In this document: in pieces, positions 7,595-25,840 of the stretch
Numbering within the stretch: the first letter of the stretch is position 1
Layout: every line of letters begins with the position of its first letter
Position numbers and translations under genes: made by a program
Source of the DNA: an uncultured Acidobacteriota bacterium
GTDB taxonomy: Bacteria; Acidobacteriota; Thermoanaerobaculia; UBA5066; DATFVB01
Length of the DNA stretch: 64,000 nt
Direction: 5' to 3'
Assembly: GCA_963813155.1 (NCBI GenBank)
Contig: CAWEYG010000003.1
Location: forward strand, 928,001 to 992,000
Notes under the pieces: model-generated
Told to the model about the DNA's origin: nothing
Database searches by the model: none
The model's input: only the letters and a program-made list of their open reading frames with translations

Positions 7595-8326
7595 TCAGTA
7601 TCCGAGCGCTCTGGGCACGAAGGTTCCCAGGAGATAGCCGCCGCCTCCGGTGAATGCTCCAACGGCGAGGACCTCGATCGCGCTTCGCACAAGGTTGATT
7701 TTTGCCAGCTGCCCTCGAACGCATCCAATGCCGGCCAGCACGAGAAAGGTCAATCCGACCGAGACGGGAAGGGCCGCGTGGACCGGAAGGAGAAAATACG
7801 GCAAGAGCGGGACGAGCGAGCCGATGAGATACGACGTGCCGATGGTGATCCCTTCGGCGATCTGAACGGTTTTCGGCTCGGAGTCGATCCCGAGCTCTTT
7901 TTCCATCATCGTCCTCGCAAAAGCGGTGGGACTCGCCTGAAGTTTTCCCGCGATCAGTTGGGCGTCTGCTTTTTGCACCCCTTCGTTCTCGAAAAGAAGC
8001 GCGAGCTCCTCCCGCTCGTATTCAGGATTTTCCCGGATGCTGCGGTGTTCTGCCTGGATTTCCGACTGCTGGACCTGCGCTTCGGCACGGTTCGAGAGAA
8101 ACTCGCCGGCTCCCATCGAGAGCGCCCCGGCGAACGCTTCCGCGAGGCCGGCGGCGATGACGGCCCGGATGCTCCCGGTGCCCCCCGCCATGGCACTGAC
8201 AACCCCGAGCGGGACCAATAACCCGTCCATTGAGCCGAAAACGAATTGCCGAATCCGGCCTCGACGTTCGACCCGAGCCCTTTCGCCGAGAATCTTTCTC
8301 TTCTCGGCGGCTGATATCTCCGCCAT
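7595..8326 (-). CDS. VIT1/CCC1 family iron/manganese transporter
   Basis: VFGSMDGL, AGALSMGAGEFLS, Glu-rich metal-binding region, GSLVPLLPY. Confidence 0.9.
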   Translation of the reverse strand: MAEISAAEKRKILGERARVERRGRIRQFVFGSMDGLLVPLGVVSAMAGGTGSIRAVIAAGLAEAFAGALSMGAGEFLSNRAEAQVQQSEIQAEHRSIRENPEYEREELALLFENEGVQKADAQLIAGKLQASPTAFARTMMEKELGIDSEPKTVQIAEGITIGTSYLIGSLVPLLPYFLLPVHAALPVSVGLTFLVLAGIGCVRGQLAKINLVRSAIEVLAVGAFTGGGGYLLGTFVPRALGY

Positions 8327-8379
8327 GTTCATCCCCCGTTCAAGACAGTCCATTTCACACCCGGCGCGGAAACGCGCCT

Positions 8380-8395
8380 CGATGTATTTGCATCA
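8380..8395 (+). promoter_or_regulatory. candidate regulator box CGATG-TATTTG-CATCA, followed by -10 TATGGT (8418-8423)
   Basis: Near-palindrome that recurs in island intergenic regions; 22 nt gap to the -10-like hexamer. Confidence 0.55.
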
Positions 8396-8442
8396 GGCAA
8401 GGGCAGGACGGCGTGGCTATGGTCGGAGGCGGAGGAAACGCC

Positions 8443-9702
8443 ATGATGTCAGCCGTCGAGCTCGAGATCGAGCTCTTTTGCCGCGGAATTCGCGTTCGTC
8501 TGGAGGATCTCCGGGGCGAGGACGCCCGCCGCATCGCGCGGACAAGAGCCGGCCTCGGCTCGGGTCTCGAGCTCGTGATCCCGAACCGGAAAAAGAAGAT
8601 ATGGGTCAACGTTCCCGTCGCCGAGCCGTTCGCCGGGAAATCGCCGTTCCTCCTGGTCACGACGGGGAAGGTCCCGTTCGTCCACGACGAGCGGAACGGA
8701 GCCGAGTATCCCGTCGAAATCCCTTCTGAGCCGGCCTGGTACTCGCGAAGCACTGCTTCCGGGGTCGAAATGAGCCGAATCGGCGTGCTACAGGGGAACT
8801 ATCTCGGCATTTACGTTTCCAACGCGTGCCTCTACTGGGCCTCGAGCCCTTCCCGCGCGTGCAAGTTCTGCACGACGGGAAGAAACCTCGGGGTCTCGGA
8901 ACAATCGCGAAAGAAGGTCGAAGACGTCGTCGAGGTGGCCCGAGCGGCTCGGAAAGAATCCGGCTCGATTTTCACCCACTTCAACACCGGCTACCACTAC
9001 GAAGAGGTCGACCGGCTCGAGCCCATCCACGGCCTCCGGCAGGCGGAACCGTTCGTTCGCGCCGTTCGTCGGGAGGTCGGTGGATTCATCGGAGTGCAGG
9101 CGCATCCGGTGCCCCGTCGCAAGTTCGGCGAGTATGACGCGTTGATCGAGGCCGGCACGGACCACTTCTCGTTCTGCTATGAATTCGAAGACCCGGAAAC
9201 GTTTGCGCGGCTGTGCCCCGGCAAGGCGCAGACCGTCGGCCAGAAGGGTTTCTTCGAAGCGATGGAGTACACGGCGGCCGCGCTCGGCCGCGGACGCGTG
9301 TCGGGGGAGATCATCGCGGGTCCCGAGTCGATCGACGCGACCAAGCGCGGCATCGACCGGATCGTCGACGCGGGAGCTTTCCCGACCGTCTGCATCTTCC
9401 GCCCGACGCTCGGGAGCGAAATGGAGAACGTTCCGCCGCCGGATCCCGAGGCGATGAAAGAAGTCTTCGCATACCTGTATTCCGCCTGCCGCCGCGCCGG
9501 ACTGCCGATCGGCATCCTCCCGATCGAAGTTTCCCTCGTCGTTCAGCCGGAGGAGGCCGTCGAGCTCGTCAAAGACGGATTTTCGACGCGAGTGTACGAG
9601 GCAAAGCTTTCGTTGATTCGGACCCTCGCGAAGCCCTACATCGCTTGGAAGACGAGGCTCCGCGCTGCGTCGAGCCCTCGAGCTAATTCCCCGGCCTCCT
9701 GA
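8443..9702 (+). CDS. radical SAM protein with expanded CX10CX2C motif (MSMEG_0568-like)
   Basis: CLYWASSPSRACKFC; RTRAGLGSG; CPGK; FRPTLGS; GGAGGA RBS before ATG 8443. Confidence 0.8.
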   Translation: MMSAVELEIELFCRGIRVRLEDLRGEDARRIARTRAGLGSGLELVIPNRKKKIWVNVPVAEPFAGKSPFLLVTTGKVPFVHDERNGAEYPVEIPSEPAWYSRSTASGVEMSRIGVLQGNYLGIYVSNACLYWASSPSRACKFCTTGRNLGVSEQSRKKVEDVVEVARAARKESGSIFTHFNTGYHYEEVDRLEPIHGLRQAEPFVRAVRREVGGFIGVQAHPVPRRKFGEYDALIEAGTDHFSFCYEFEDPETFARLCPGKAQTVGQKGFFEAMEYTAAALGRGRVSGEIIAGPESIDATKRGIDRIVDAGAFPTVCIFRPTLGSEMENVPPPDPEAMKEVFAYLYSACRRAGLPIGILPIEVSLVVQPEEAVELVKDGFSTRVYEAKLSLIRTLAKPYIAWKTRLRAASSPRANSPAS

Positions 9703-10132
9703 GCGTCCTCATGTAACGCACGACTTCCAGGATCTGGCGATCCGAAAGTGTGCGTCCGTACGGAGGCATAAGCGGAGAAAGGCCGATGCCGTTGCCACCG
9801 CGTCGGACCGCGTCCTCGAGCTGCTCGTCGAGGCGGCTCTTCTGGAACGCGGGGTCCGAGAGATCCTTTGGCTTCGGATCGAGGTTGAACGCATTGAAGC
9901 CGTCGCCCGCCCCGGTCTCGCCATGGCAGGTCTGGCAGTAGTAGGCAAAGACCATTTTCGCCAGCCGCAGCTCGTAGGAGGCCGAAGGGGCGGGGGATGG
10001 GGCCTCGGGGCTCTGCAGGTTGTTCGCGACGTTGGCAGCCACGTTTTTCGAGACCCGCGCGCCGACCGACCGCCGGCCGCATCCGGAGCCGGAAATCAGG
10101 ATGAGCGCGGCCGCGAGAAGTCGCGCCTTCAT
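9683..10132 (-). CDS. lipoprotein monoheme class I cytochrome c
   Basis: Signal peptide with lipobox GSGC, CQTCH, distal Met in LMPPY; overlaps the octaheme gene stop. Confidence 0.85.
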   Translation of the reverse strand: MKARLLAAALILISGSGCGRRSVGARVSKNVAANVANNLQSPEAPSPAPSASYELRLAKMVFAYYCQTCHGETGAGDGFNAFNLDPKPKDLSDPAFQKSRLDEQLEDAVRRGGNGIGLSPLMPPYGRTLSDRQILEVVRYMRTLRRPGN

Positions 10133-12132
10133 TTCGAAGCCTGCGCCGCGGCCGTCGGGGGAAGGCTCTCGAGGTACGACGTGATCCTCAGCGCGTCTGT
10201 GTCGGACAGGCCGTAGTTCGGGCAACGGACGTCGGCCCTCCAGCGTTGCGGCCCCTTCATCCAGTAGTAGACCCACCCCGGCCGGAGCCGCTTCGGGGTA
10301 TCCGTGAGAGGGGGTCCGACGTACCCGCCCGAAGCCCCGAGGATGTGGCAGCCCCGGCAACCGAGAGTGATGTAGAGACGCGATCCCTCGGAGGCGTCCG
10401 AGTCGCCCGCCGGCCGGCCGGCGAAGGGGTCCTCGGCGATCGCGGGATCGACGTAGAAATTCTGGATCGCGTCGGCGAGCAGCGCGGCCTGCTCGCGCGT
10501 GATCCGGAGCGACGGCATCCGTTCTTCGAGGATCGGGCGCAGCGTGTACGGCGCCGCGAGGTAGTCGACGAGCCACTCTCGTTTCACCTTGCTTCCCTCG
10601 AAGGTCAGAGGCGCCGTCGAGATGTCCTCGCCCCGGTCGCCAATCCGGTGGCAGGAGAGACAGCGGTAGCTTTCGACGAGCTTGCCGATCTGCCCGCCCG
10701 GGAGGAGGGCCGGCGCCGCCGTCGATTCCACGCGATAGCGTTCGGGAGGCGGCTCGGAGCCGAGCGAGAGAAGCGCCGTGACGACTGCGCGCGCATCCTC
10801 CGCATTCAAGCCGTAAGACGGCATCTTCAGACCCTGCGCGAAGGACCGGGGCGCGTCGATTTTCGCCGCGAGCCAGGCGGGAAGCGTCCTCGGAATGTCG
10901 GTTCGGCGCCCGAAGTCCAGGGACGAAGCCTTCTTGTCGCCAATCCCAGCGAGGTCCGGGCCGAACTTCTCGCCCCGGCCCGAAACCGACGGGTCATGGC
11001 ACGAGAGACATCCGGAAGTCCGAAAGACCTTCTCGCCCTTCTCGGCGAGAGTTTGATTGACCCGGATCGGCTCGAGGACGTTGGCCGGAGCTTCGAAATC
11101 GCGAAAGTCCTGCTCGAGGTAGGCCACGACATCGCGCGATTCGGCCTCGGAGAAGTTGAAGCGGGGCATCCGCGTCCTCGGATTGAACGCCTGGGGATTG
11201 CGGAGGAAGGCGAGCAGCCACCCGCGGGTCGCCGCGGTGGCGACGTGCGAGAGCTCCGGCGCCGCGCCCTTTCCTTTTCCTTCCACGGTATGGCAGGTGA
11301 TGCAGCGCGATTCGGAAAAGAGCTTCTTTCCGGCCGCGGGATCGCCCGGGGCCTCCTGTTCCGCGGCCCGAATCTGTCGCGCGAGCAGGTCGGGAGCGGC
11401 GAGACTGAACACATAGTGCGCCAGCTCCTCGACGCTGTCGCCCGCCAGATGGAAGTTCGGCATCGTGGCATTGGGATCGACGCCATGCGGGTCCCTGAGC
11501 CACTGGCGCAGCCAGATCCCTCCCGTTTTCATCGACTCCGCCGCGAGCGGCGGGGCTTCGGACACGAAATCTCCGTGACCGGGAACCGAGTGGCAGGCAT
11601 AGCAGCCCTTCCGGGCCATCAGCTCGCGGCCGCGGGAGAGGGTCGGCGCCTCCGGCACGGCCGCGGTGAAATGGCAACGGCCGCATCCTCCTTCGAGAAA
11701 GGAAAGGGGCAGCATCGGCGGCCCGGCGTCCCGCGCGGTCCCGTGGGCGTCCTCGAGATCGGTTGCGAGCCCCTGCCCTCCGTGGCACGACGTGCAGCCG
11801 AATCGGTCGAAATCTGCGGGCGTGTGGGCGGTTCGGGAATGAAAACCGTACGGTTCGGGAGCGCCGGCCAAGACCGCGTCGGCCGCCCCGAGGTGGCAGG
11901 TCGTGCACCTGTCCACGCGATCGTTGAAGTCGCGCAGCCAGAATTGCTGAATGGCCACCGGACGGCTCGAATACTCGCGCGCCGACTTGAGGTTTTTCGC
12001 CCGGGACGCCGCGAGCGCGAAATAACGGCGCTGAATCCCGCGATACGGCCGCAGGACGTTCTTGACCGGCGAGACCGCGAGGACCGCGAGGAAGATCACG
12101 CTGGTCGCGGCGAAGATTCGTCGGAGCGGCAC
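10129..12132 (-). CDS. membrane-anchored octaheme cytochrome c (Rieske/cytb-associated)
   Basis: N-terminal hydrophobic anchor; 8 CxxCH (CTTCH, CTSCH, CGRCH, CYACH, CITCH, CLSCH x2, CRGCH); repeated MP distal-ligand motifs. Confidence 0.9.
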   Translation of the reverse strand: MPLRRIFAATSVIFLAVLAVSPVKNVLRPYRGIQRRYFALAASRAKNLKSAREYSSRPVAIQQFWLRDFNDRVDRCTTCHLGAADAVLAGAPEPYGFHSRTAHTPADFDRFGCTSCHGGQGLATDLEDAHGTARDAGPPMLPLSFLEGGCGRCHFTAAVPEAPTLSRGRELMARKGCYACHSVPGHGDFVSEAPPLAAESMKTGGIWLRQWLRDPHGVDPNATMPNFHLAGDSVEELAHYVFSLAAPDLLARQIRAAEQEAPGDPAAGKKLFSESRCITCHTVEGKGKGAAPELSHVATAATRGWLLAFLRNPQAFNPRTRMPRFNFSEAESRDVVAYLEQDFRDFEAPANVLEPIRVNQTLAEKGEKVFRTSGCLSCHDPSVSGRGEKFGPDLAGIGDKKASSLDFGRRTDIPRTLPAWLAAKIDAPRSFAQGLKMPSYGLNAEDARAVVTALLSLGSEPPPERYRVESTAAPALLPGGQIGKLVESYRCLSCHRIGDRGEDISTAPLTFEGSKVKREWLVDYLAAPYTLRPILEERMPSLRITREQAALLADAIQNFYVDPAIAEDPFAGRPAGDSDASEGSRLYITLGCRGCHILGASGGYVGPPLTDTPKRLRPGWVYYWMKGPQRWRADVRCPNYGLSDTDALRITSYLESLPPTAAAQASK

Positions 12133-12141
12133 GTTTCCTCC

Positions 12142-12846
12142 CTAGAACCCGGTTCCCGCGTTCCAGGGCCAGACGAACGACCAGCCGGGGCCGCGAAAGA
12201 AAGTCCCGATGGCCGTGAGGATCGTGGCGATCATCACGAACCAGGTCATGATCCATTCGGGCAGCGTCACGCCCGAGAGAACGCGCCGGAGGCGGCCCCC
12301 CTGCTCCCCTCCGCGCGCGGCGAACATCGCGGCCGCGACGAGAACCGTGGGCACCACGACCGGCCAGCAACCTGAGGCTCCGAAGGCCACGACAAGTGCT
12401 CCGGTGGCGGCGACCAGCGCGATCGCCTGCTTCCTGCCTTTTCCAGCCCAGAGCGGGCCCGCCGTCAGGTTGATCCGGGCATAGGGAATGACGACGAGGG
12501 AGATCACGACGAGAGCCGGCAGCAGAACGCCGGCGACGATCGGCGGAAAATAGTGGAGAAGCTCCTGAAGTCCGAGAAAGTACCAGGGGGCCTTCGCGGG
12601 ATTCGGCGTCTCGAGCGGATTGGCGATTCCTTCCAGCGGCGCGTCGAACGCGAATGCCGCGACTGCTAGCGCGATTACCACGACCTGGAACAGGATGATC
12701 TCGCGAAGGATCAGGTGGGGAAAGGTCATCACGTATCGCTCGTCGTCCCGGCGGACGGCCGGCCGCATCTGCGGGTTCAGGAGCGCGACCCGGATCGGAA
12801 CGGCGAGCGGGTCGTTGGATTCGACGAGGTCGATCTCGCGGCTCAT
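12142..12846 (-). CDS. Rieske/cytb complex subunit IV (C-terminal half of split cytochrome b)
   Basis: [32 protein letters not shown] (PEWY-equivalent), FFRGPGW. Confidence 0.88.
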
Positions 12847-13628
12847 GGAAGATCCTCCTCTCGTAGCTCATCTTCCGGCGGGCCGCCGTCTTCTTCGGGG
12901 GGACCCTGCACCCCGCCGTCCTTGCGGACTCGCCAAACGTGAACCGAGACGAACAGGAGCAGCGCAACCGGAAGCACGACGCAGTGGAGGACGTAGAAGC
13001 GGAGCAGGGCGTTTTCCGACACGACGTTTCCGCCCAGCAGCAGGAAGCGAACCTTGTCGCCGATGAAAGGCGCCTGTTTCGCCATGTTCGTCCCGACCGA
13101 GACGCCCCAGAAGGCGAGCTGGTCCCACGGCAGGAGATAGCCCGTGTACGAGAGAAGAAGAGTCAGGATCAGGAGGACGACGCCGATGACCCAGTTGAAT
13201 TGGCGCGGCGGCCGATAGGCCCGGTGGTAGAAGACGCGGAGCATGTGGAGAATCGCCGCGAAGACCATCGCGTGCGCGGCCCATCGGTGGAGGTTTCTCA
13301 GGAAGAGCCCGTTGTCCACGACGTAGTGGAGCTCTTTCATGTCCTTGTAGGCCTGGGGAACGGAGGGATGATAGTAGAACATCAGCAGGACGCCCGTCGC
13401 GACGAGAATGGCCGAGCAGGCGAGCGCGATTCCCCCGAGCCAGTAGGTGTGCCGGAAGAGGAGGGTCTTTTCGCGGACCTTGACCGGATGAACGTGGAGA
13501 AACAGGTTCCCGAAGATGATGAGCGATCGGTTCAGGTTCGTGTCGGCTACGCCGTGCCGCACGATCGAGCGATAGACCGAAGTCTCGCGAATTCTGCGCC
13601 AGAGCATTTCCATCGTCGATTCCTTCAT
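12843..13628 (-). CDS. cytochrome b6-like N-terminal subunit of Rieske/cytb complex
   Basis: RNLHRWAAH...[18 protein letters not shown]-x14-H (b6-type spacing); ATG 13628 overlaps the Rieske stop. Confidence 0.92.
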
Positions 13629-14080
13629 GCTTTGAACAGCTTTCCGTGCGGAATCACGATGCTCGTGTCGACCAGGAGATTCCCCGCCGCGTCGGAAGTC
13701 ACCTCGAGCCAGGGAAGCGGACGGGGAGCGGGGCCGTGGGAGACGTTGCCCTCCAGATCGAAGCGGCTCCCGTGGCAGGGGCAGGCGATCGCTCCCTCGT
13801 CGGAAACGAATCGCGTAATGCAGCCGAGATGCGTGCAAACGGCGGAAAGGGCGTAGATCCCGCCCGGCCCCCCAATGACGTAGGCCTTCTGCTCCTTGTT
13901 GAAACGGACCGTGCCTTCCGGATAGTCGCCCGAGCCTCCCGCGCGAAACGTGGTCGGCGGTTCGAACAGGACCTTCGGCTTGAGGTAGTCGAGCGTCACC
14001 ACGCCGGAACCGAGCGCAGCCGCCGCGCAAGCGCCGACTCCGATGCGAGCGAGAAAGTCCCGCCGGCTCGACTCGTCCAT
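13625..14080 (-). CDS. Rieske [2Fe-2S] protein
   Basis: Tat motif SRRDFL, CTHLGC and [15 protein letters not shown]; alternative TTG start at 14116. Confidence 0.93.
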
Positions 14081-14108
14081 CTCGCGCAGATTCGGATCTC
14101 TCGCGCCG

Positions 14109-15938
14109 TCAGGCAACAGCGTCCCCCTTCCTCCCAAAACTCTGCATCGTGATCGTTCCGGCCGGACACCGGGCGGCGCACAGGCCGCAGCGAATGCAGA
14201 CGGTCTCGTCCTTCAGAAAAATCGCCCCCTCGCGCCGGCCCTCGATGACGATCGGCGCGATTTCGCGCGCGGCCGGCGACCCTCGCCGGATTAAGGCCTG
14301 CGGAAGGATCTCGATGCAGTTCTCCGGGCAGATGTCCTGGCATCCGCCGCAGAGGATGCATTCCGTTCCCTGGGAGGCGCTCTCTTCGAAGATCGTGTTC
14401 GTCCAGCAATGGAGGCAGCGGGAGCCCTCGAGCCGAGCCTGCTTCTCGGAAAAGCACTCCTCGACCTCCGCGATTCCGATCCGGCGGGCGATCGGCCGGG
14501 TCGGAGGCTTCTGGCGCGGGAGGCCCTCGAAATCCAGAGGTTTGGCATAGCGGCCATGGACGTCGATCTCGACCTCGATCTCGGGCTCGTTGCGCGGACG
14601 GCCGCGCAGGAATTCGTCGATCGACCGCGCCGCCTTCTTTCCGTCCGCGATCGCGTTGATCGCGATCCGGGGACCGAACGCCGCGTCGCCGCCGGTGTAC
14701 ACGCCCGGCGCCGTCGTCGCGAGCGTGTCGGGGTTCATCGTGATCCGGCCCCCTTTGATCGCAATACCGTCTTCCGGGCGGAGAAACGAGAAGTCACCCG
14801 TCTGGCCGATCGCCATGATCGCGGTATCGGCCTCCAAAACGGTTTCCGAACCCTCCAGAAATTGAGGTGAAAAACGGCCAGACTCGTCGAAAACCCGCGA
14901 GACCTTCCGGAATTCGATTCCCGTCAGGCCGGACGGTCCGCCGAGAAAACGGCTGGGCCCGAGCCGATGTCGGAAACGAATCCCCTCCGAGGAAGCCTCT
15001 TCGATCTCGTCGCCGGCGGCGGGCATCTCCGCCTCGGATTCGAGGCAGCAGACCGTCACCTCGCGGGCGCCGAACCGGACGGCGCTCCTGGCGACGTCGA
15101 GCGCCTGCACGATCGACAGATTGCGCTCCGTGTTGACCTGCTCCCCGGCCCGGGCCGCCGTGCGGGCGACGTCGAGGGCGACGTTGCCGCCGCCGATCAC
15201 GACGACGCGCCGGCCCATTTCGAGCTTGTAGCCGAGGTTGATGTTCAAGAGATAGTCGATCCCCCGGAGCACGCCGTCGAGTTCGACGCCCGGGATCGTC
15301 AGGTCCCGGCTCCGCATCGCCCCCACGCCGAGAAAGACGGACCGAAATCCCTGCGCCTGCAGGTCCGAGATCGTGAAGTCGGTCCCCAGTCTGGTGTTGG
15401 TCTTCAGCTCGACGCCCAGGGAAAGGATCGCGTTGATCTCGAGCTGGATGATCGCCCGCGGCAAGCGATACTCGGGCACGCCGAGGCGGAGCATGCCCCC
15501 GGCCACGGGAGCTCCTTCGAAGATCGTCACCGGATACCCCATGATCGCCAGGTCATGCGCGCACGCGAGGCCCGCCGGGCCCGATCCGATCACCGCGACT
15601 TTCTCCGCATAGCGGTCACGTCGGGCTCCGAAGATCTCCGTCAGTACCGAAAAGTCCATCATGCTTTCGACACCGAACTTTTCCGTGACGAAGCGCTTGA
15701 GGGCGCGGATCGAGATCGGAGCGTCGAGCTCCCCCCTTCGGCAGACGCTCTCGCAGGGCGCCGCGCAGATCCTTCCGCAGATCGAGGCGAGCGGGTTGGG
15801 CTTTCGAGCCACCGCGTAGGCTTCCCGGAACTTCCCCTGCGCGATCAGGGCCACATACTTCCCCGCTTCGGTGTGGACCGGGCAGGCCCACTTGCAGGGA
15901 AAGTTCCGTTCCAGCCATTCGACGTTGACGCCGGTCAC
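14109..15938 (-). CDS. GltD/NfnB-like FAD/NAD(P)-binding oxidoreductase with C-terminal 2x[4Fe-4S] ferredoxin domain
   Basis: PCKWACPVH, CGRICAAPCESVC, GSGPAG, GGMLRLGVPEYRLP, GGGNVA, RCLHC, CILCGGCQDICP, CIRCGLCAARCP; GTG at 15938. Confidence 0.9.
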   Translation of the reverse strand: MTGVNVEWLERNFPCKWACPVHTEAGKYVALIAQGKFREAYAVARKPNPLASICGRICAAPCESVCRRGELDAPISIRALKRFVTEKFGVESMMDFSVLTEIFGARRDRYAEKVAVIGSGPAGLACAHDLAIMGYPVTIFEGAPVAGGMLRLGVPEYRLPRAIIQLEINAILSLGVELKTNTRLGTDFTISDLQAQGFRSVFLGVGAMRSRDLTIPGVELDGVLRGIDYLLNINLGYKLEMGRRVVVIGGGNVALDVARTAARAGEQVNTERNLSIVQALDVARSAVRFGAREVTVCCLESEAEMPAAGDEIEEASSEGIRFRHRLGPSRFLGGPSGLTGIEFRKVSRVFDESGRFSPQFLEGSETVLEADTAIMAIGQTGDFSFLRPEDGIAIKGGRITMNPDTLATTAPGVYTGGDAAFGPRIAINAIADGKKAARSIDEFLRGRPRNEPEIEVEIDVHGRYAKPLDFEGLPRQKPPTRPIARRIGIAEVEECFSEKQARLEGSRCLHCWTNTIFEESASQGTECILCGGCQDICPENCIEILPQALIRRGSPAAREIAPIVIEGRREGAIFLKDETVCIRCGLCAARCPAGTITMQSFGRKGDAVA

Positions 15939-15949
15939 ACGATGTCCCG

Positions 15950-17299
15950 TCAGAACACGAATCTCGCCAGGACGTACAGGGTATTGTTGTCGCTCGCATT
16001 GCGCCCGGAACCGTCGTAATTCGTCTTCGCGCCGTTGAACTTCGTATAGACCGTGTACTGCGCGGCGAGCTGGCAGTTCTGAACCGGCCACCAGGATACG
16101 TTCGCGATGTAACCCGAGCTGTTCGGGCTGCCGGTCGCGCTTCCGCTGAGATCCGCCGGGGCGAAGAGAAGCGTGTCCGGAGTCCCGGTGACGTTGAACA
16201 AGCCGATTCCTGCCGAGTAGCGGTTCCCCAGATGGTAGTTGGCGCTGGCCGCCACCGAGCTCAGGTGGTGCTTCTCCCGATCGGCACCGCCCTGGTCGAA
16301 GCTCCCGGTCAGGGTCGAATTCTCGCGGATGTATGTCCCGCGCAGCGAGAGAACGTCCGTTCGGAACAGCGTTTGGTCGTATTGCGTGTCTGCTCCCCAA
16401 TCGGTGAACTCGTCCTCGGGGCCCGAGACGGAATTCGGGTTGGACTTCACGCGCATGCCGAAGCCTCCGACCTCCAGGAAATTGTTTCCCGCGATCGTCT
16501 GCTGCCACGCGACCCGCCAGTAGGGAGCGACACCGCGAATGTTGACGGCAAAGCCCTCGCCCGACGTCGGGGCAGGACTCCCCACGTGATCCGAGCGGTA
16601 GAGCGTTCCCGCGAGGTAGAGATGGTCATCCCACATCGCATAAGCACCGAGGCCCGCCACATCCTGGCCGAGACTCGCGATGATCGGAGCCGCTGTCGGG
16701 GTCGGTGCGGAGTCGCTCGCCATGAACGGATAGCCCCAGGCCGGTGTCGTGTTCCAGAGATCCTCGACGGTCGGATTGTTGTTGAGCGTCAAACCGTAAA
16801 CGAGCTCTTTGCCTCCCATCTTCGTCAAGTTGGCATAGCGCACGTCGCTATTGTCGATGCTGAAGTGATCGTCCTGCTTGGTGTAGGTCACCTGCACGAA
16901 GCTGCCAATGTGCGTCGTCCAGGCGCCGGAAAGAAAGAGCGAGATGTCCTGCGGGAATTCGACGTTCCCATTCTGCGTGCCGGGTTGAGTCTTGTTTGTG
17001 TGCGTGTAAGAGGTTTCCAACCACGCGGAAAGAGGAAGGGTCTTGAGCAGGTTGAGGCCGGCATGGGTTTCCTTCGGCTCGTTTACGACCGCTGGCGTCT
17101 CCTGGGCGCGGTCCGTGTAGCCCAGCAGCTTGAACCGCCGGCCAGCGCTGTTGAGCTCGGGAGGAGTGGTATGGCAGCCGTTACACGCAAGTCCCGTCTG
17201 TCGAGCGAAGCTCGGGACAGATTGCGCGGTCGAGCGAAACAAGACGGCGACGGCAAAGGACACGGCGACGACGAACAGGAACGAATAGCGGTTCTTCAT
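15950..17299 (-). CDS. cyc2: Cyc2-type monoheme cytochrome-porin fusion (outer membrane)
   Basis: Signal peptide, then SVPSFARQTGLACNGCHTTPPELNSAGRRFKLLGY, matching the Cyc2 signature (PxFARQT, CxxCH, PxL, GRxFK); beta-strand-rich remainder; C-terminal Phe. Confidence 0.88.
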   Translation of the reverse strand: MKNRYSFLFVVAVSFAVAVLFRSTAQSVPSFARQTGLACNGCHTTPPELNSAGRRFKLLGYTDRAQETPAVVNEPKETHAGLNLLKTLPLSAWLETSYTHTNKTQPGTQNGNVEFPQDISLFLSGAWTTHIGSFVQVTYTKQDDHFSIDNSDVRYANLTKMGGKELVYGLTLNNNPTVEDLWNTTPAWGYPFMASDSAPTPTAAPIIASLGQDVAGLGAYAMWDDHLYLAGTLYRSDHVGSPAPTSGEGFAVNIRGVAPYWRVAWQQTIAGNNFLEVGGFGMRVKSNPNSVSGPEDEFTDWGADTQYDQTLFRTDVLSLRGTYIRENSTLTGSFDQGGADREKHHLSSVAASANYHLGNRYSAGIGLFNVTGTPDTLLFAPADLSGSATGSPNSSGYIANVSWWPVQNCQLAAQYTVYTKFNGAKTNYDGSGRNASDNNTLYVLARFVF

Positions 17300-17301
17300 C
17301 T

Positions 17302-17877
17302 CTACCTCGCGATTTCAAAGTCCGCCGTCGTGGCGCCTTTCACCGTGACGGCCTTCTGGGTTCCTTTCGCTTTCGGATGCCAGACCTTGACCGTGTAAGC
17401 ACCATCGGGAACGTCGGCAATCCGGAACGAACCGTCCGCCTTTGTGACCGCAAAATACGGAGTCGGAACCGCTGCGACAAAGCCTTCCATCTCGGGATGG
17501 ACCTTGCAGAGGAGTGTGGCGACGCACTCTTTCTTGAACGTGTAGCTCTTGGTCTGCCCCTTGGGCCACGTGCCGAGATTGAACTTGTCGGCGCAGGCAT
17601 CCGGGGAGTACACGTTGTGCAGGACGGCGTCGGAATTGAGAAAATCCACGGTCGTTCCGACGAGCACTGGGACGACGTGCGGACTGAAGATCAGGTTCGC
17701 CTGGTCCATCTTCGCGTGAGCGGTCGGCGCGGGAAACGTCTTCCCCGACTCGACGGCGTAAACCACCGCGTCGGCGCTGTCGCGGGTCCCCTTCACCTTC
17801 ACTTTTCCCTGGATCTCACCCGCGAGAAGGGGTGCGCCAACGCTCAGAATCACTACTGCGATCAAATTATTCTTCAT
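17302..17877 (-). CDS. secreted cupredoxin-like protein with carboxypeptidase-regulatory-like domain
   Basis: Signal peptide; HNVYS...CKVHPEM gives type-1 Cu ligands His/Cys/His/Met; GAYTVKVWHP; AAGGAG RBS. Confidence 0.82.
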   Translation of the reverse strand: MKNNLIAVVILSVGAPLLAGEIQGKVKVKGTRDSADAVVYAVESGKTFPAPTAHAKMDQANLIFSPHVVPVLVGTTVDFLNSDAVLHNVYSPDACADKFNLGTWPKGQTKSYTFKKECVATLLCKVHPEMEGFVAAVPTPYFAVTKADGSFRIADVPDGAYTVKVWHPKAKGTQKAVTVKGATTADFEIAR

Positions 17878-17959
17878 TGAGACCAACTCCTTTCAACACC
17901 ACAGATTCTGTCGCCCCGGGAGGTCCGATCCCATCCCGCAAGCTCACCGAATTACGTAG

Positions 17960-18652
17960 TTAAACCTCACCAGGCAAGAGGATGCGTTTCTGGAACGCGA
18001 AGGCGACTGCCTCGGCCTTCGAGTGGAGCTCGAGCTTGTCGAGGATGTTCTGGATGTGGTTGCGTGCCGTCAGGTGCGAGATATGGAGCCGATCCGCGAT
18101 CTCGGGCGTTGCCCGGCCGGCCGCGAGCATGCCGAGCACTTCGACTTCACGGGCCGTGAGCTTCCGGGCACGAGCGTCGGGCGACTCCCGGACGACGGAG
18201 AGCATCGATCGCGGCGGTATGGCAGGTTCTTCCGAGTCCTTCGGCTCCCTCCGGTCGGAGAGCTGAGGTTGAAGGATATGAGCGAGATAGAAGCGATCGG
18301 GAGGCCCGGATCCGACATTGAGGATGCTCACGTCCGCGACGATGCTCGCGCCTCCCTTCGCTTGGAGAGTCAGGCCGAAATGTCGGACAGGCTCGCCGCG
18401 GAAGGCCATCTGCGTGACCGGACAGGTCTCGGCGCAGTAGCGGTTCCCGTGGACGTCGCTGCCCTCCAACATCCCGGCGCAGCTGGCCCCCAGGGCTTCC
18501 TCCTCGCTGTAACCGAAGAGGTGCTCTGCGCTGTGGTTCCAGAAAACGATCCGGTTGCGCCGGTCGGTGGCGAAAACGGGCTCGGGCGAATGCTCGAGCG
18601 CCGAGAAAAGAGCGGCGACGTCGCCCGGGAGCTGAGCGGTGCCGAACCTCAT
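17960..18652 (-). CDS. PAS domain + LuxR/NarL HTH transcriptional regulator
   Basis: IVFWNHSAEHLFGY (PAS), C-x14-C-x3-C, LTAREVEVL...IADRLHIS..TARNH. Confidence 0.9.
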   Translation of the reverse strand: MRFGTAQLPGDVAALFSALEHSPEPVFATDRRNRIVFWNHSAEHLFGYSEEEALGASCAGMLEGSDVHGNRYCAETCPVTQMAFRGEPVRHFGLTLQAKGGASIVADVSILNVGSGPPDRFYLAHILQPQLSDRREPKDSEEPAIPPRSMLSVVRESPDARARKLTAREVEVLGMLAAGRATPEIADRLHISHLTARNHIQNILDKLELHSKAEAVAFAFQKRILLPGEV

Positions 18653-19038
18653 CCGATTTTCGCGTTCTTGTTCAGGATCTCCCGGCAAAATCCTTCGAGC
18701 TCCTGATTCGTGAACTCGTTCCAGCCGTCGCAGGTGTCGTGCTCGCGCAGCTGTGCGTCGCAGGAGAGCGGAACGCGGTCCACGATCTGGCGCGCGAGCT
18801 GCCACTTGTTGGCGAGGTCCTCGATCTCCTCCCGGCTCGCCTTCGGGTTCCGGCGAGTGAGCCAGTCATGACGGTCGCGGAACTCCTCGTCCGAAAGGCG
18901 GCGAAATCCCCGGCAGAAGACGCCTTTCTCGGTCGCGACCTGACACATCGAGTGTTCGTCGTCCGTCATCGCGAGCAGGGTCTCGCGCAAGCGGCGAATC
19001 GCTTCGGCGCGCGATATCGAAGTTGTGATTGGCCCCAT
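18649..19038 (-). CDS. Cys/His-containing hypothetical protein coupled to the PAS-LuxR gene
   Basis: 129 aa ORF with GAGG RBS and ATGA overlap; HSMC, FCRGF, SCD, HDTCDGW. Confidence 0.7.
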   Translation of the reverse strand: MGPITTSISRAEAIRRLRETLLAMTDDEHSMCQVATEKGVFCRGFRRLSDEEFRDRHDWLTRRNPKASREEIEDLANKWQLARQIVDRVPLSCDAQLREHDTCDGWNEFTNQELEGFCREILNKNAKIG

Positions 19039-19123: not shown

Positions 19124-19187
19124 AATGTCTCCGAAACTGATGCGTTTGCAGGAGGCGCCCGCGATCGGATCGCGCGACGATCGCGTC

Positions 19188-20126
19188 ATGAACGAAGAAC
19201 CGAAAATCCGCGTATTGCTCCCCATGGTGCCGGAAGAGGCGACCGCCAACGTCGGTCGGCTCGTTCGCGCGTTTTTCCGCCCCGACCTGGCCGTGCTTCG
19301 GCCCTTCTACGCCGCGCGCCCGCTGCAGGCGGAAGTCTTCCTTCCCGAAGCGTCGGCGGCTCTGCCGGAGCTCTACCGTCTCGACCTCGAGGCAAGGCTG
19401 GCCGCCGGAGATCAGCTGAAGAAGGCGGTGGCTCCTCTGGCCGAGGCGGGCTACACGACGGAGCCGGACGTCGTCTCGGCAGCGCCGATCGAGGCGGTCA
19501 TGAACGAGATCGGGGCCTGGCGCGCCGATATGACCGTCCTCCGGACGAGCCGGGTCTCGCGGCAGGAAGGCCGAATCGGACACATGACGTCGAGCCTCGC
19601 GCGAAGCGCGAGCTGCCCCATTCTGACGTACCGCGACGTTCCCGAATCGTACCGGGTGAGAAGAGTCCTCATCGCGACGGATTTCTCGGAAAGCTCGCGG
19701 GCGAGCGCCGACTGGGGAATGGCCATGGCGGAACTGGCGCAGGCCGAAGCGCACCTGCTCTACGTCGTCGCGCGGCACGGAACGCGAAAGCTCGACTCCG
19801 CGCTCGTGCTCAGGGAAGGGACCGACGAAATCGCCCGCTGGAGGAAGCGGATAAATCCCGCGTTTCCCCGCCCGTTGACCGACGCCCACGTGATCTCGGC
19901 CGAATACCCGGCGGAGGGAATTCTGAACTTTGCGACGGATTCCGCGTTCGACCTGGTCGTTCTCGCCGGCACGGGCCGGACGGCCCTGGGCGGGATGCTC
20001 CTCGGCTCCAACGCCCGGGCAGTCGTCCGCTGGAGCGATCGCCCGGTGCTCCTTGTCCCCAATTCGAACCGTATTTCGGCAGCCTTGGTCCTCGGAAAGA
20101 TGCTCGTCGGTGTCTCGAGCCGCTGA
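19188..20126 (+). CDS. tandem universal stress protein (USP)
   Basis: RVLIATDFSESS, DLVVLAGTGR, LLGSNARAVVR..PVLLV; start could be further upstream (19125/19140). Confidence 0.88.
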   Translation: MNEEPKIRVLLPMVPEEATANVGRLVRAFFRPDLAVLRPFYAARPLQAEVFLPEASAALPELYRLDLEARLAAGDQLKKAVAPLAEAGYTTEPDVVSAAPIEAVMNEIGAWRADMTVLRTSRVSRQEGRIGHMTSSLARSASCPILTYRDVPESYRVRRVLIATDFSESSRASADWGMAMAELAQAEAHLLYVVARHGTRKLDSALVLREGTDEIARWRKRINPAFPRPLTDAHVISAEYPAEGILNFATDSAFDLVVLAGTGRTALGGMLLGSNARAVVRWSDRPVLLVPNSNRISAALVLGKMLVGVSSR

Positions 20127-20131
20127 GCCCC

Positions 20132-20147
20132 TAATTCATTCGCATCA
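20132..20147 (+). promoter_or_regulatory. candidate regulator box TAATT-CATTCG-CATCA
   Basis: Right half-site CATCA conserved; left half TAATT is the same as in the 34599 site. Confidence 0.4.
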
Positions 20148-20182
20148 TGACTCCGGGCAGCACGAGCGAGGAAGATCCCATT

Positions 20183-20707
20183 ATGAGAGCTCTTCGAATC
20201 GTTTCTCGTCTGGGACTCCTGGCACTCACCCTGAACGCCTGCTCGACGCTCCGGATCGCCGTGGATTACGACAAGTCGGTCGATTTCGCGAAATACCGGA
20301 CCTACAAATGGATCGAGAACGCGCCTCCGCCGGAAAACGCATTGGTGATGAAGAGATTCCGCGCGGTGATCGAGCACCGGCTGGTCGCGAAGGGCTTCAC
20401 GAAGTCCGATCGCCCGGATCTGCTGATCGCGCTTCAGACGCATCGAGCTCTGGAAACTGTCTTTCGAACCGATGTTGAGCGCTGGGGTTACGGACCGGGA
20501 TGGTGGAGGGGAAACATCGCCTTTACGCGGCCCGAACAGATCCCCGTCGGGACCCTCGTCCTCGATCTCGTCGACGCCCGCTCCAACGAGCTGGTCTGGC
20601 GGGGAGTCGCGCGTCGCCTGATCGATCCCGAGGCGTCCTCTGAAAAAAGAGACCGCCACGCTGAAGAAACGATCGATCGGCTCCTCGAGAACTTCCCGCC
20701 GCGATGA
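20183..20707 (+). CDS. DUF4136-type lipoprotein
   Basis: Lipobox LNAC; DYD..VDFAKYRTYKW; GTLVLDLVDARSNELVWRG. Confidence 0.85.
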   Translation: MRALRIVSRLGLLALTLNACSTLRIAVDYDKSVDFAKYRTYKWIENAPPPENALVMKRFRAVIEHRLVAKGFTKSDRPDLLIALQTHRALETVFRTDVERWGYGPGWWRGNIAFTRPEQIPVGTLVLDLVDARSNELVWRGVARRLIDPEASSEKRDRHAEETIDRLLENFPPR

Positions 20708-21027
20708 CGGTCGCCGTTCAGCCCTCGCGATGCTCAGTCGCCTTGATGAAAGCGGATCTGAACCCGGTGCACGCCAACATCCTCCTCGCCTGCCCTGGCT
20801 GCGGTCATTCGACCGGACTCCTCACGCTCCATCCCTCCTGGCGCTGCGCCCGATGCCGGGTGCACTGGCAATTGAAAATGTGCCGGCACTGCCACCGGCA
20901 TCTCGCGATGGGAGAGGACGGCCCCTTCTGTACGGACGGGCTCCGGCGCGGGACAGGCCGCGCGGCAACGGCTTCGCCCACCGCTCACGACAAGGTGTTG
21001 CAACAAGCTAAACGCTTGCGATCTTGA
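20704..21027 (+). CDS. small Cys-rich (zinc-ribbon-like) hypothetical protein
   Basis: CPGC, CARC, CRHC pairs; ATGA overlap with the upstream gene. Confidence 0.45.
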   Translation: MTVAVQPSRCSVALMKADLNPVHANILLACPGCGHSTGLLTLHPSWRCARCRVHWQLKMCRHCHRHLAMGEDGPFCTDGLRRGTGRAATASPTAHDKVLQQAKRLRS

Positions 21028-21061
21028 GAAAACTCAGTTTGACCCAGAAGGAGAGTTCGTC

Positions 21062-21454
21062 ATGAAAGGTTTTGTGGAAGACATCGAGAGTCTCGCTGTC
21101 ACAAACGGTGAGTTTCGCCGGGTGCTTTACACGGCAAAGCACTGCCAGCTCGTCCTCATGTCGCTAAAACCCAAGGAAGAGATCGGGGCGGAAGTCCACC
21201 ATCTCGACCAGTTCTTTCGCGTGGAGGAAGGAAGCGGTCAGGCGATTCTCGATGGCGTTCGGACGGCGATCCGAGCGGGCTTCGCGGTCGTCGTTCCGGC
21301 CGGAGCGAATCACAACATCATCAATACCGGCAGCGTTCCGCTGAAGCTCTACACGCTCTACGCGCGCCCAAATCATCGCGACGGCGTCGTCCACCATACG
21401 CGCGACGACGCGGAAGCCGACAACGAGCACTTCGACGGCAGGACCACAGAATAG
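21062..21454 (+). CDS. cupin domain protein
   Basis: FRRVLYT, EIGAEVH..DQFFRVEEG, VPAGANHNIIN; AGGAG RBS. Confidence 0.9.
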   Translation: MKGFVEDIESLAVTNGEFRRVLYTAKHCQLVLMSLKPKEEIGAEVHHLDQFFRVEEGSGQAILDGVRTAIRAGFAVVVPAGANHNIINTGSVPLKLYTLYARPNHRDGVVHHTRDDAEADNEHFDGRTTE

Positions 21455-21615
21455 AGAGCCAAATCGGGCGACCGCCTCCACGGCGGACCGCAGGAGGCGC
21501 AACCCACCGGGCGGCCGAGGACCGATCGATGCCCTGGGGTGTGAGACCGGCGAAGCTGTGAGAAATCGGTCGGTGGATCGCGGGCTCCCGCGAGGGGCGT
21601 CTCTTGCCGAACTCG

Positions 21616-22062
21616 TTAACGGGGAGAGCCCGATTTTCTCCGCGGTCCGCGCCCTTTCATGATCCACCTTTTCGATTTCGTGACCGGGCGCTCCGCGCCC
21701 TTACCGATCAACGTCAACAAATCGGTCGTCGTCACGATACCGACGAGCTTGCCGTTCTCAACGACCGGAAGGCTGCCGATCGATCGCCCTCGCATCAGGT
21801 TTGCGGCTTCCCGGAGCGTCGTTTCCTTTCGCGCGGTCACGACCGACGAGGTCATCACGTCGGCAACCGTCCGGTTCTTCCGATACTCGGGATCAGCGAA
21901 ACCGCCCATGTCGCGGTCGGAGAGAATCCCCACGATTTCCGAACCGCGTGTGACGACCAGATGGTGGATTCGACTCTGTGTCAGCCGGTTCCATGCCTGT
22001 TCCGCCGACATCCCGGCATCGACGGTCTCGACCTTCTTGTTCATGACCTCTTCGAGTCTCAT
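21616..22062 (-). CDS. CBS domain pair protein
   Basis: IHHLVV...GILSDRD and IGSLPVV...GIVTTTDL. Confidence 0.88.
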   Translation of the reverse strand: MRLEEVMNKKVETVDAGMSAEQAWNRLTQSRIHHLVVTRGSEIVGILSDRDMGGFADPEYRKNRTVADVMTSSVVTARKETTLREAANLMRGRSIGSLPVVENGKLVGIVTTTDLLTLIGKGAERPVTKSKRWIMKGRGPRRKSGSPR

Positions 22063-22155
22063 TCCTCGCGCTCCCTTCCGTATGGAATTCCCTGTATATT
22101 CAAAGACCTTGGAAACACATTCGGAATCGCCTTTCGAGAACAAGCGGGAGGCCCG

Positions 22156-22611
22156 GTGAGAGTCGAACAACTGATGCGAAAGCGGGTGGAAACAATCCGC
22201 GAGGACGGCTCGACCGAGGAAGCCCTGAAACGGATGCGCCTTCGCAAGCTCCGGCACCTCGTTGTCGTCCGAGAGGGTGAGGTCGTCGGGATCGTATCGG
22301 ACCGCGATCTTGCCGGCCTGCTCGTGGGAGACCTTCGACTGGACCGATCGATTTCGCAGGTCATGAGCCTTGGAGTCGCTGTCGTTGGACCGGAGACCAA
22401 GATCGAAGACGCCGCGCGTCTCATGCGTCGGCGAAAGATTGGCGCCTTGCCGGTCGTGTATGGTCGAAAACTCATCGGAATCCTCACTGCGTCTGACCTT
22501 CTTGAACTGTTGAGCCGCGTCATGACAAAGCCTCGTCAAAAACGACGCCCGCGGCATCATCCCAAGAGGTCTCGAGACTCCACAACTCGCCGCATCGCAG
22601 CGAAAAGATGA
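22156..22611 (+). CDS. CBS domain pair protein (divergent paralog)
   Basis: LRHLVV...GIVSDRD and IGALPVV...GILTASDL; GGAGG before the GTG. Confidence 0.85.
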   Translation: MRVEQLMRKRVETIREDGSTEEALKRMRLRKLRHLVVVREGEVVGIVSDRDLAGLLVGDLRLDRSISQVMSLGVAVVGPETKIEDAARLMRRRKIGALPVVYGRKLIGILTASDLLELLSRVMTKPRQKRRPRHHPKRSRDSTTRRIAAKR

Positions 22612-22659
22612 AAAAAGAGCGTGGCCGTCGCGGGGGCGACAGCCACGCGCCTGCCGGGC

Positions 22660-23340
22660 TCAGAAGTACGGCTCGATTCTGAGCCGATCGACGACCTGCT
22701 GCACTCCGGAAGCGTGTTGAACAGCTCCGAGAACGGCGTCCTTTTCCGGCCAGGAGTGAACCCTTCCCTCGAGGACCACCTTTCCGTCGTCGACGTCCGC
22801 GTCGATCCGATCCGCTTCGCGCTCGGCTCGGCGCTCGAGCGTGTCTTCGATCGCTTTCCGGAGCTTCACGGGATCCGCGCTCTTCCTCGCGACCGTGATG
22901 TTGTTGATCACGCCCCGAACGCCGAGAAGCCTCCGGACGGCGCTCTCGACCTCGTCGCGGTCGAAAAGAGACTCGACGCCTCCTTCGAGCGTCACCCATC
23001 CACTGGCGACGGTCGATCGGACCTTCGTGTCATCGACAAACGAGTCCCACTCGAGAGCGCGTCGGACCGCGAGAGCGATGTCCGGGTCAGTCCGAACGAG
23101 GCTCCCGGGGATCTGAACCTGGATGTCGTCGGCGACATCCAGCACGCCGCTCACCCGGTGCGCCGCCTGGCGCGCCGCGAGCTTCTTCGCGTAGCTGTCG
23201 ACGTTGCCTGTCAGGGCCACGATCCCGTTCTTGACGGACACACCGATCTCCGTTTGTTTGACTCTCGTGTCCCAACGCAACTCTGCCAGAACGTCCTGCT
23301 GAACTTGTGAATCGGTCCGAGTCATTGTCATGGTTGCCAT
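22660..23340 (-). CDS. triple BON domain protein
   Basis: Three repeats of V..G.V.L.G.V...AA..V.GV..V...I; AGGAGG RBS. Confidence 0.9.
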   Translation of the reverse strand: MATMTMTRTDSQVQQDVLAELRWDTRVKQTEIGVSVKNGIVALTGNVDSYAKKLAARQAAHRVSGVLDVADDIQVQIPGSLVRTDPDIALAVRRALEWDSFVDDTKVRSTVASGWVTLEGGVESLFDRDEVESAVRRLLGVRGVINNITVARKSADPVKLRKAIEDTLERRAEREADRIDADVDDGKVVLEGRVHSWPEKDAVLGAVQHASGVQQVVDRLRIEPYF

Positions 23341-25795: not shown

Positions 25796-25840
25796 GTCGA
25801 TGATCCGGTCGATGACCGGTCACCTGTTATGCTGAGCGCC

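Follow-up and report, generated by a model that had tools for sequence, protein, structure and literature searches.

The window analysed here is a stretch of 64,000 nt of contig CAWEYG010000003.1, from an uncultured Acidobacteriota bacterium, and all positions below are counted within it unless a locus is named. Its open reading frame (ORF) list contains eight ORFs, all on the minus strand and running from 17877 to 9683, that bring a Cyc2-family outer-membrane cytochrome and a cupredoxin together with a Rieske/cytochrome b complex and a flavoprotein. In gene order, with the evidence for each label, they are:

17302..17877, minus strand: two-domain periplasmic cupredoxin, 191 amino acids (aa); type 1 copper ligands, AlphaFold2 fold, Pfam
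15950..17299, minus strand: Cyc2-family monohaem cytochrome fused to a 16-strand outer-membrane barrel, 449 aa; motif, AlphaFold2
14109..15938, minus strand: cytoplasmic oxidoreductase with flavin adenine dinucleotide (FAD) and [4Fe-4S] clusters, GltD/NfnB/DsrL family, 609 aa, GTG start; Pfam Fer4_20, Pyr_redox_2, Fer4_7
13625..14080, minus strand: Rieske [2Fe-2S] protein of Ser/Phe type, exported by twin-arginine translocation (Tat), 151 aa; Pfam Rieske, Tat signal
12843..13628, minus strand: four-helix b6-like cytochrome b, 261 aa; Pfam/NCBIfam, alignment
12142..12846, minus strand: subunit IV with APWY quinol-site motif, 234 aa; Pfam Cytochrom_B_C
10129..12132, minus strand: membrane-anchored octahaem cytochrome c, 667 aa, 8 CxxCH; motifs, alignment
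9683..10132, minus strand: monohaem class I cytochrome c, probably a lipoprotein, 149 aa; motif, alignment

The intergenic spacings along the cluster are 2, 11, 28, -4, -4, 9 and -4 nt, computed with the flavoprotein and Rieske starts taken from the translated-ORF reading. Coordinates and spacings thus confirm the co-oriented, tightly packed arrangement, in this order, that a first-pass annotation of the stretch had claimed. Pfam or NCBIfam models back every gene label save that of Cyc2. Overall and third-position G+C are at the level of the genome, being slightly lower in the first two genes (cupredoxin and Cyc2), and terminator-like sites in the region show no excess (11, compared with 8.6 ± 2.8 by chance). 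The eight genes very probably act as one functional unit, and are presumably co-transcribed. A sigma-70-like site at 17896-17869 was considered as the promoter and dropped because it overlaps the cupredoxin start.

The association of Cyc2 with this core extends well beyond the window. Among the best 80 of 169 Cyc2 loci, 46 have the full core (flavoprotein, Rieske protein, cytochrome b and multihaem cytochrome on the same strand), and all 46 also have the cupredoxin; the core is partial in 6 and missing in 28, 15 of these 28 being on short contigs. When the count is restricted to the 50 loci with long flanks, the core is complete in 35, partial in 2 and absent from 13. Cyc2 stands first in 36 loci and last in 10; in the window it is the second gene. 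For the reverse survey, covering 301 Acidobacteriota genomes, we fetched every one of the 29 top-scoring cytochrome b matches (E < 1e-85, counting the window). The operons of 24 of these 29 relatives contain a Cyc2-like gene and a cupredoxin, and 21 of the 24 also contain the flavoprotein; a close Cyc2 occurs in 12 of the 301 genomes, and the Cyc2-cupredoxin-core set including the flavoprotein in at least 21, all these counts including related genomes that are non-independent samples. Of the other five relatives, G011 is interrupted by a contig break, a molybdoenzyme is present in two, one has no visible partner, and in one the Cyc2-like gene is on the opposite strand. The proposal that the outer and inner halves of the cluster belong together is borne out by both surveys (46 of 80 and 24 of 29), and the synteny of cyc2 with the core, which had been set beforehand as a test, was found in two classes of Acidobacteriota with Cyc2 in three cluster positions.

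The Cyc2-like genes of the 24 relatives form four divergent lineages (6, 12, 2 and 4 genomes), which are interleaved on the core tree (FastTree, 48 rows, midpoint root, L043 dropped). In L120-L124 the cytochrome b is 76-79% identical to that of the window, and the Cyc2 is shared only over its N-terminal 130-160 residues, at 22-27% identity. Type B Cyc2 is a full-length homologue of the window type (profile comparison, probability 98.9, 370 columns), and type D proteins align with it over the first 78 columns only, a span that leaves homology of the barrels uncovered. The slot has been refilled from divergent lineages and nevertheless retained, which argues for function rather than hitch-hiking. 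A separate architecture occurs in L145 (5531-10236), L146 (8091-12784) and L147 (8107-12708), where directly behind Cyc2 come a Rieske gene and a cytochrome b of ∼900 aa that has four c haems fused to it; no flavoprotein or cupredoxin match was obtained in these three loci.

The window Cyc2 contains PxFARQT, a single CxxCH at residues 39-43, a following PxL, and a C-terminal Phe. Published criteria for the family (Keffer 2021, PMC8406198) are AXPXFAR[Q/K][T/Y] before CXXCH, PXL after it, a length of at least 365 aa and a signal peptide. The window protein has Ser for the first Ala of the motif and fits the remainder, has the single CxxCH and sufficient length (449 aa), and has a signal peptide as judged by eye from its N-terminal hydrophobic helix. 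The family pattern, allowing F or Y, is matched in 76 of the 80 related loci. The AlphaFold2 model is a 16-strand barrel, as expected for the family, with a mean predicted local distance difference test score (pLDDT) of 75 and values <50 for residues 20-49, which include the haem motif; Foldseek matches of the barrel are porins, the best with a query template modelling score (TM-score) of 0.52 to OprP/OprO. No Pfam or NCBIfam model and no PDB sequence matched Cyc2, the Atlas yielded only unnamed cytochrome clusters, and a protein search returned close relatives with no reference Cyc2 among them. The closest named relatives are from uncultured Acidobacteriota, including Thermoanaerobaculia and Terriglobia. 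Full-length relatives at 31-38% identity occur in Burkholderiaceae, Acidiphilium and on an Acidithiobacillus plasmid, with 15 plasmid records represented; this distribution would suggest membership of Cyc2 cluster 2. The Fe(III) reducer Acidiphilium cryptum JF-5 carries a full-length homologue on a plasmid. This plasmid and one of Acidithiobacillus ferrooxidans YQ-N3 (L155 and L156, both 7890-10186) share a matching Cyc2-like gene and c-type cytochrome, annotated as hypothetical, with transposase and U32 peptidase genes alongside.

The cupredoxin has a type 1 His...Cys-x2-His-x2-Met site on a cupredoxin fold, and copper binding is predicted at H87, C124, H127 and M130, which are conserved without exception in two alignments (49 of 49 and 58 of 58 sequences). 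Its AlphaFold2 model (pLDDT 93) includes a second domain, a CarboxypepD_reg-like beta-sandwich. PDB sequence and fold matches are to amicyanin, plastocyanin, pseudoazurin and a Nitrosopumilus cupredoxin. Rusticyanin is absent among the matches listed and was ruled out as the identity of this protein, so that the parallel with the rusticyanin of Acidithiobacillus drawn in the first-pass annotation gives way to an amicyanin/plastocyanin-like assignment.

Judged by its motifs and gene content, the core is an anammox-type (APWY, subfamily G) Rieske/cytochrome b complex with its own flavoprotein: b6-like cytochrome b, subunit IV, Rieske protein, multihaem cytochrome c and NAD(P) oxidoreductase occur together, as in the anammox clusters. 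This likeness, suggested earlier, is strengthened by the Rieske protein, whose top PDB matches are two Kuenenia proteins, 9rk4 and 9rk3, from complexes that bear an NAD(P) oxidoreductase. The flavoprotein has NfnA, NfnI and GltD as PDB relatives, ligands for four [4Fe-4S] clusters, and a C-terminal 2x[4Fe-4S] domain. Its FAD-proximal cluster has three Cys and a Lys, Lys81, in 71 of 71 sequences (a set that includes the window and one duplicated genome); this residue is presumably equivalent to the Lys described beside the same cluster in Kuenenia (PMC12954380). The YRR motif, which binds the 2'-phosphate and marks NADP specificity (PMC7596348) in the manner of NfnB/DsrL-2, is replaced by acidic xLE/xIE in all 71; because YRR is missing, the flavoprotein is likelier to be specific for NAD(H) than for NADP(H). 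Of the NAD(P)H/ferredoxin link proposed earlier, the NAD(H) part is the one that the sequence favours.

Rieske residues S105 and F107 are kept in 45 of 45 sequences and predict a fairly high potential; this Ser/Phe signature is that of the 'Mid+' class, at about 260 mV (PMC4122944). Subunit IV has APWY, the motif that, together with a Rieske protein of Mid+ to high potential, defines the APWY clade of cytochrome b (PMC4122944), in 45 of 45, always combined with the Ser/Phe Rieske. Cytochrome b retains the four haem b histidines and His45, and has Trp (WLGG) at the position of the haem cN Cys (CxGG); this Cys is absent from 71 of 71 flavoprotein-linked cytochromes b and from 18 of 18 further ones. 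Among nine flavoprotein-free relatives (one more locus, at a contig edge, was excluded), three have the cN Cys and six do not, and His45 is present in eight, so we dropped His45 as a marker of the flavoprotein link. The flavoprotein gene has been lost from L112 (10001-16366), whose cytochrome b is the only one examined that lacks His45. Five class I domains come after three N-terminal haems in the octahaem cytochrome, which has 8 CxxCH in 43 of 45 orthologues and keeps Met224/322/437/539. In the monohaem cytochrome, CxxCH and Met122 are found in 46 of 46, and a lipobox-like stretch, by a rough pattern, in only 31 of 64.

It is instructive to compare the cluster with described systems. Kustd1480-1485 and Kuste4569-4574 of Kuenenia stuttgartiensis (PMC12954380) share with it the four-helix cytochrome b, subunit IV, the Ser-type Rieske protein, a multihaem cytochrome c that replaces cytochrome f/c1, a cytoplasmic FAD/4x[4Fe-4S] oxidoreductase whose FAD-proximal cluster has a Lys, and an N-terminal His and C-terminal Arg/Lys that resemble residues proposed to hold an interface haem. 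In contrast to the Kuenenia models, which keep haem cN, the cN Cys is missing here (a difference from Kuenenia, not from subfamily G overall); moreover, there is no HAO-like octahaem, Cyc2 in the outer membrane, a cupredoxin and a monohaem cytochrome serve as the presumed terminal partners, and the host is heterotroph-like and has complex I. Oxidoreductase neighbours are reported for subfamily G 'in many other cases' (PMC5600118). The Cyc2-rusticyanin-CycA1-bc1 (petI) chain of Acidithiobacillus (PMC8406198, PMC8790237, PMC13741234) is similar in its fused monohaem cytochrome-porin, blue copper neighbour and link to a Rieske/cytochrome b complex, but the copper protein here is amicyanin-like with an extra domain, and the operon has no oxidase and itself encodes the complex, which is of b6-like type with APWY and comes with an NAD flavoprotein of its own. 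The extHIJKLMNOPQS cluster of Geobacter, whose components are more abundant on Fe(III) (PMC5877670), likewise unites an outer-membrane porin, multihaem cytochromes, a Rieske protein and a split cytochrome b; it differs in that ExtI is porin-like without a haem fusion, the multihaem set is another one, a rhodanese is present, and the accessible text lists no cupredoxin or NAD flavoprotein. Scores against the curated Ext models fall below cut-off (ExtP 263 < 290, ExtQ 55 < 150, ExtS 74 < 100; the window cytochrome b scores best to ExtP), and no other Ext model matched a window protein in the NCBIfam scan; these sub-cut-off scores, with the missing Ext partners, rule out an Ext operon. Finally, the flavoprotein shares FAD and NAD(P) Rossmann folds and an N-terminal two-cluster domain with GltD/NfnB/DsrL, and its C-terminal 2x[4Fe-4S] domain with DsrL (PMC7596348), but has Lys for Glu at the proximal cluster, no YRR, two distal-cluster ligands that the alignment places in the C-terminal part, and no NfnA, GltB or DsrAB partner in the operon.

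The openly accessible literature searched (including the accessible portions of PMC13741234, PMC10654088, PMC8446621, PMC7029218 and PMC6344600) contains no description of Cyc2, a cupredoxin and this complex in one operon, in agreement with the earlier impression that the combination is not a described system. The supplement text of PMC5600118 has neither 'porin' nor 'cupredoxin', a text search that did not extend to figures or to one file of PMC4122944. The operon is thus real and conserved, and joins two known systems in a combination that is apparently undescribed.

The same core is also found with other terminal modules. In 12 of 28 nosZ-bearing genomes, nosZ lies within ∼4 kb of a listed cytochrome b match; in all 10 of these 12 loci that were fetched (L158-L167), flavoprotein, Rieske, fused cytochrome b and pentahaem genes stand directly upstream of clade II nosZ (NosZ identified above the curated cut-off in 8 and by BLAST in two; L159 is frameshifted). 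Ten further loci, hand-picked from mid-ranked cytochrome b matches, have the core with cbb3-type CcoN/CcoO in 5 and with an NxrA/NarG-like enzyme in 1, no terminal module being seen in 2 and no flavoprotein in 2. The CcoN/CcoO matches are strong yet below cut-off in the two loci scanned, and the order in L169, L170, L171, L173 and L174 is Rieske, cytochrome b, heptahaem, CcoN, CcoO, small protein, flavoprotein. In L126, L131 and L177 a molybdoenzyme of about 1150 aa that resembles Kuenenia NxrA, and its Fe-S subunit, come after the core, the enzyme in L126 and L131 being closest to Kuenenia NxrA. NosZ and haem-copper oxidases only accept electrons, and the core therefore runs forward in those loci, the direction also proposed in Kuenenia (PMC12954380). 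By parallel with the mostly sink modules in the same slot, this suggests that Cyc2 may be an electron exit.

Two features directly upstream of the cluster may bear on its regulation, the first of them a gene passed over in the first-pass annotation:

17960..18652, minus strand: PAS-LuxR transcriptional regulator; Pfam PAS and GerE
17931..17948, minus strand: conserved upstream element, candidate promoter or regulator site; common to LuxR-linked loci, spotted by eye without statistics

A PAS-LuxR gene occupies this position in 19 related loci, with cysteines C58, C73 and C77 conserved in 5 of 5 aligned proteins; it is a probable activator of the cluster and may have a sensing role. A Crp/Fnr-type palindrome, TGTGA-N6-TCACA with ≤2 mismatches, precedes 42 of 70 loci (20 base shuffles: mean 8, maximum 14), but neither the 19 LuxR-linked loci nor the window cluster, and 10 loci have a Crp/Fnr-family gene with N-terminal cysteines (Cys-rich, Fnr-like). 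A canonical FNR box was rejected as the regulator site: it fits more poorly (23 of 70 compared with 8) and is absent upstream in the window. From these sites and regulators we infer low-oxygen induction of the clusters.

The host genome (3.8 Mb, 90.8% complete) is heterotroph-like. It encodes complex I subunits (three NuoD-like, one NuoF), two aa3-type oxidases and one cbb3-type oxidase, both oxidase types having cupredoxin paralogues as gene neighbours. Searches for RuBisCO and for a bd oxidase gave no match in this 90.8%-complete assembly, other fixation pathways not having been searched for. MtrC-like and MtrA-like decahaem genes (OmcA/MtrC and DmsE/MtrA families, both above cut-off) lie 12 kb from the cluster at 31467-34606. 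They are followed by a probable MtrB-like barrel, frameshifted near its end, the whole stretch spanning 29643-34606 on the minus strand.

We propose that the cluster could be a low-oxygen respiratory operon built around a quinol-bifurcating complex. Menaquinol would be oxidised at the APWY site, and one electron would travel a low-potential arm, via haems b (possibly including a dimer-interface haem held by His45), four [4Fe-4S] clusters and FAD, to NAD+ rather than to a second quinone. The other would follow a high-potential arm through the Rieske protein, the octahaem cytochrome and the cupredoxin and/or monohaem cytochrome to Cyc2, which would act as the terminal reductase of a swappable module and deliver it outside the cell to a high-potential acceptor, for instance Fe(III) in dissolved, chelated or acid-soil form, or Mn oxide. 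We give outward, bifurcating operation about an even chance. Directly observed are the genes present, their conservation, the cofactor motifs and the exchange of modules; complex formation, NAD specificity, bifurcation, direction and substrate, like low-oxygen induction, are inferred components of it. In Kuenenia, Rieske potentials are +303/+335 mV and NAD(P)+ reduction by bifurcation has been proposed, with the quinone-reducing site named as the main obstacle to bifurcation (PMC12954380); the missing haem cN Cys in flavoprotein-linked cytochromes b fits the loss of such a site. For Acidithiobacillus, Fe(III) reduction has been suggested to run from quinol through bc1 and rusticyanin to Cyc2, and Fe(III) reduction at low oxygen is reported for some Acidobacteria (PMC8790237). 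In favour of this reading we also count the retention of the Cyc2 slot across four lineages, the Crp/Fnr-type sites and regulators, the Lys kept at the FAD-proximal cluster, the homologue carried by Acidiphilium cryptum JF-5, the nearby MtrC- and MtrA-like decahaem genes and the lack of a RuBisCO match.

Several observations weigh against this proposal. The three Cyc2 proteins that have been tested biochemically all oxidise Fe(II) (PMC8406198), and NAD(P)+ reduction is only proposed, and unproven, even in Kuenenia (PMC12954380). There is little energetic margin, with a forward sum of +36 mV for a 208 mV haem, +163 mV at 335 mV and -172 mV for an acceptor near 0 mV (membrane potential excluded, menaquinone and acceptor potentials assumed), so that only high-potential acceptors would work. 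Neither cN loss nor His45 marks the flavoprotein link, because most flavoprotein-free relatives share both features (six and eight of nine, as above); cN loss may also follow gene transfer (PMC5600118), and APWY has been interpreted as a sign of reverse running (PMC4122944). Cyc2 is separable from the core, as seen in the 13 of 50 full-flank loci without it and the 2 with only part, and L112, L139, L150 and L151 combine Cyc2 with a Rieske complex that has no flavoprotein. Among the alternative modules, NXR-type enzymes can be electron donors. Low-oxygen control would be as good a fit to microaerobic Fe(II) oxidation and is neutral as to direction. The host itself has a second cupredoxin-Cyc2-like pair, uptake-like in arrangement, before cbb3-type genes (L039 8367-14585; G000:C3:58366-64584); this arrangement indicates that the cupredoxin family can serve inward flow.

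Other readings have Cyc2 take electrons up. In one, an Fe(II)-oxidising Cyc2 feeds a periplasmic pool that drains to the aa3/cbb3 oxidases, and the Rieske complex works in parallel, making NADH, in a mixotrophic, microoxic life style. The activity of the tested Cyc2 proteins (PMC8406198), the host's two aa3 and one cbb3 oxidase with their neighbouring cupredoxin paralogues, and the occurrence of Cyc2 and cupredoxin without the core are all as this would predict. Nevertheless we regard it as unlikely: Fe(II) electrons would compete with the Rieske arm for the acceptor and leave less drive for bifurcation, the Cyc2 operons examined contain no oxidase gene, and the presence of Cyc2 in the slot that NosZ or CcoNO occupies in sister operons is left unexplained. 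Confurcation, in which an Fe(II) electron (via Cyc2, cupredoxin, octahaem and Rieske protein) and an NADH electron jointly reduce menaquinone, driven by NADH and proton-motive force, is the thermodynamic mirror of the forward reaction, and APWY complexes have been proposed to run in reverse, for example in Geobacter p-cresol metabolism (PMC4122944). It would, however, spend NADH and membrane potential that complex I would conserve, the energetic ground on which NAD(P)H-driven quinone reduction was rejected in Kuenenia (PMC12954380), and it is inapplicable to the NosZ- and cbb3-linked versions; we consider it quite improbable.

The first-pass annotation had gone further, proposing a wire from extracellular metal to NAD(P)H without complex I. 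All carriers for such a path are co-encoded, and Acidithiobacillus has an uphill Cyc2-rusticyanin-bc1 branch (PMC8790237), but that branch goes no further than the quinone and depends on complex I. Within a complex of the Rieske/cytochrome b kind, the Rieske and haem b arms converge at the quinol site (PMC12954380). The complex would then either oxidise quinol with NAD+ plus an acceptor or reduce quinone with NADH plus a donor, and because both arms fork at this site, a linear Fe(II)-to-NAD+ path fits neither option. The electron would have to climb ∼0.5-0.6 V while moving to the negative side, opposed by the membrane potential, which would be workable only with a second, reverse-running bc complex, and the host has complex I subunits and no RuBisCO match. 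We therefore do not favour the wire and hold it to be very improbable. Nor do we expect much of a plain outward wire, which seems about as doubtful as confurcation: NADH would reduce extracellular Fe(III) through flavoprotein, haems b, quinone or Rieske protein, octahaem and Cyc2, which would serve to balance redox state or mobilise metal and conserve little energy. Every step is downhill, low-oxygen regulation is consistent with it, and DsrL-type relatives are bidirectional (PMC7596348); yet membrane potential would be dissipated, and the invariant quinol-site motif and Rieske Ser are as expected if bifurcation has been retained.

The outward, bifurcating reading can be extended to a more general one, which we advance tentatively and think somewhat less probable than its contrary: a widespread soil-bacterial machine in which a Cyc2-family terminal reductase lets extracellular high-potential metal reduction drive electrons from quinol to NAD+, the quinone-reducing site having been given up, on a core that serves as a general plug-in platform for Cyc2, NosZ, cbb3 oxidase or a nitrate/nitrite molybdoenzyme. 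If this is true, each electron would yield more protons through looping with complex I, and many of the cyc2 genes called in soil metagenomes would stand for iron reduction, not oxidation; cyc2 is in use as an iron-oxidation marker, and its role in Acidobacteria has been called unclear (PMC8446621). The conserved context hints at a possible reductase role of Cyc2 in abundant soil bacteria. It also bears on NAD(P)+ reduction by quinol bifurcation in Rieske/cytochrome b complexes, so far argued for slow-growing anammox bacteria, of which a variant without the haem cN Cys, in ordinary heterotroph-like lineages, may be easier to test.

Other genes surround the cluster. A radical SAM gene (8230-9702, plus strand, weakly MSMEG_0568-like) converges on the cluster end, and a 129-aa protein without family is encoded at 18649-19038 on the minus strand; both genes recur near cyc2 in L031, L033 and L041. 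Tandem universal stress protein, CBS-domain and BON-domain genes, a set common in low-oxygen regulons, adjoin the cluster at 19125-23493, and a second PAS-LuxR paralogue (25829-26503) and small cytochromes (28351-29285) lie between them and the decahaem genes. Elsewhere in the host, the L039 locus comprises a divergent Cyc2-like gene, a dihaem cytochrome and ccoN/ccoO, with ccoN split over two frames, possibly through an assembly error. A second APWY-like Rieske/cytochrome b/octahaem cluster (G000:C5:240449-246639) keeps the cN Cys and has no flavoprotein match, and an ACIII-like cluster with an aa3-type oxidase is located at C1:423247-434058.

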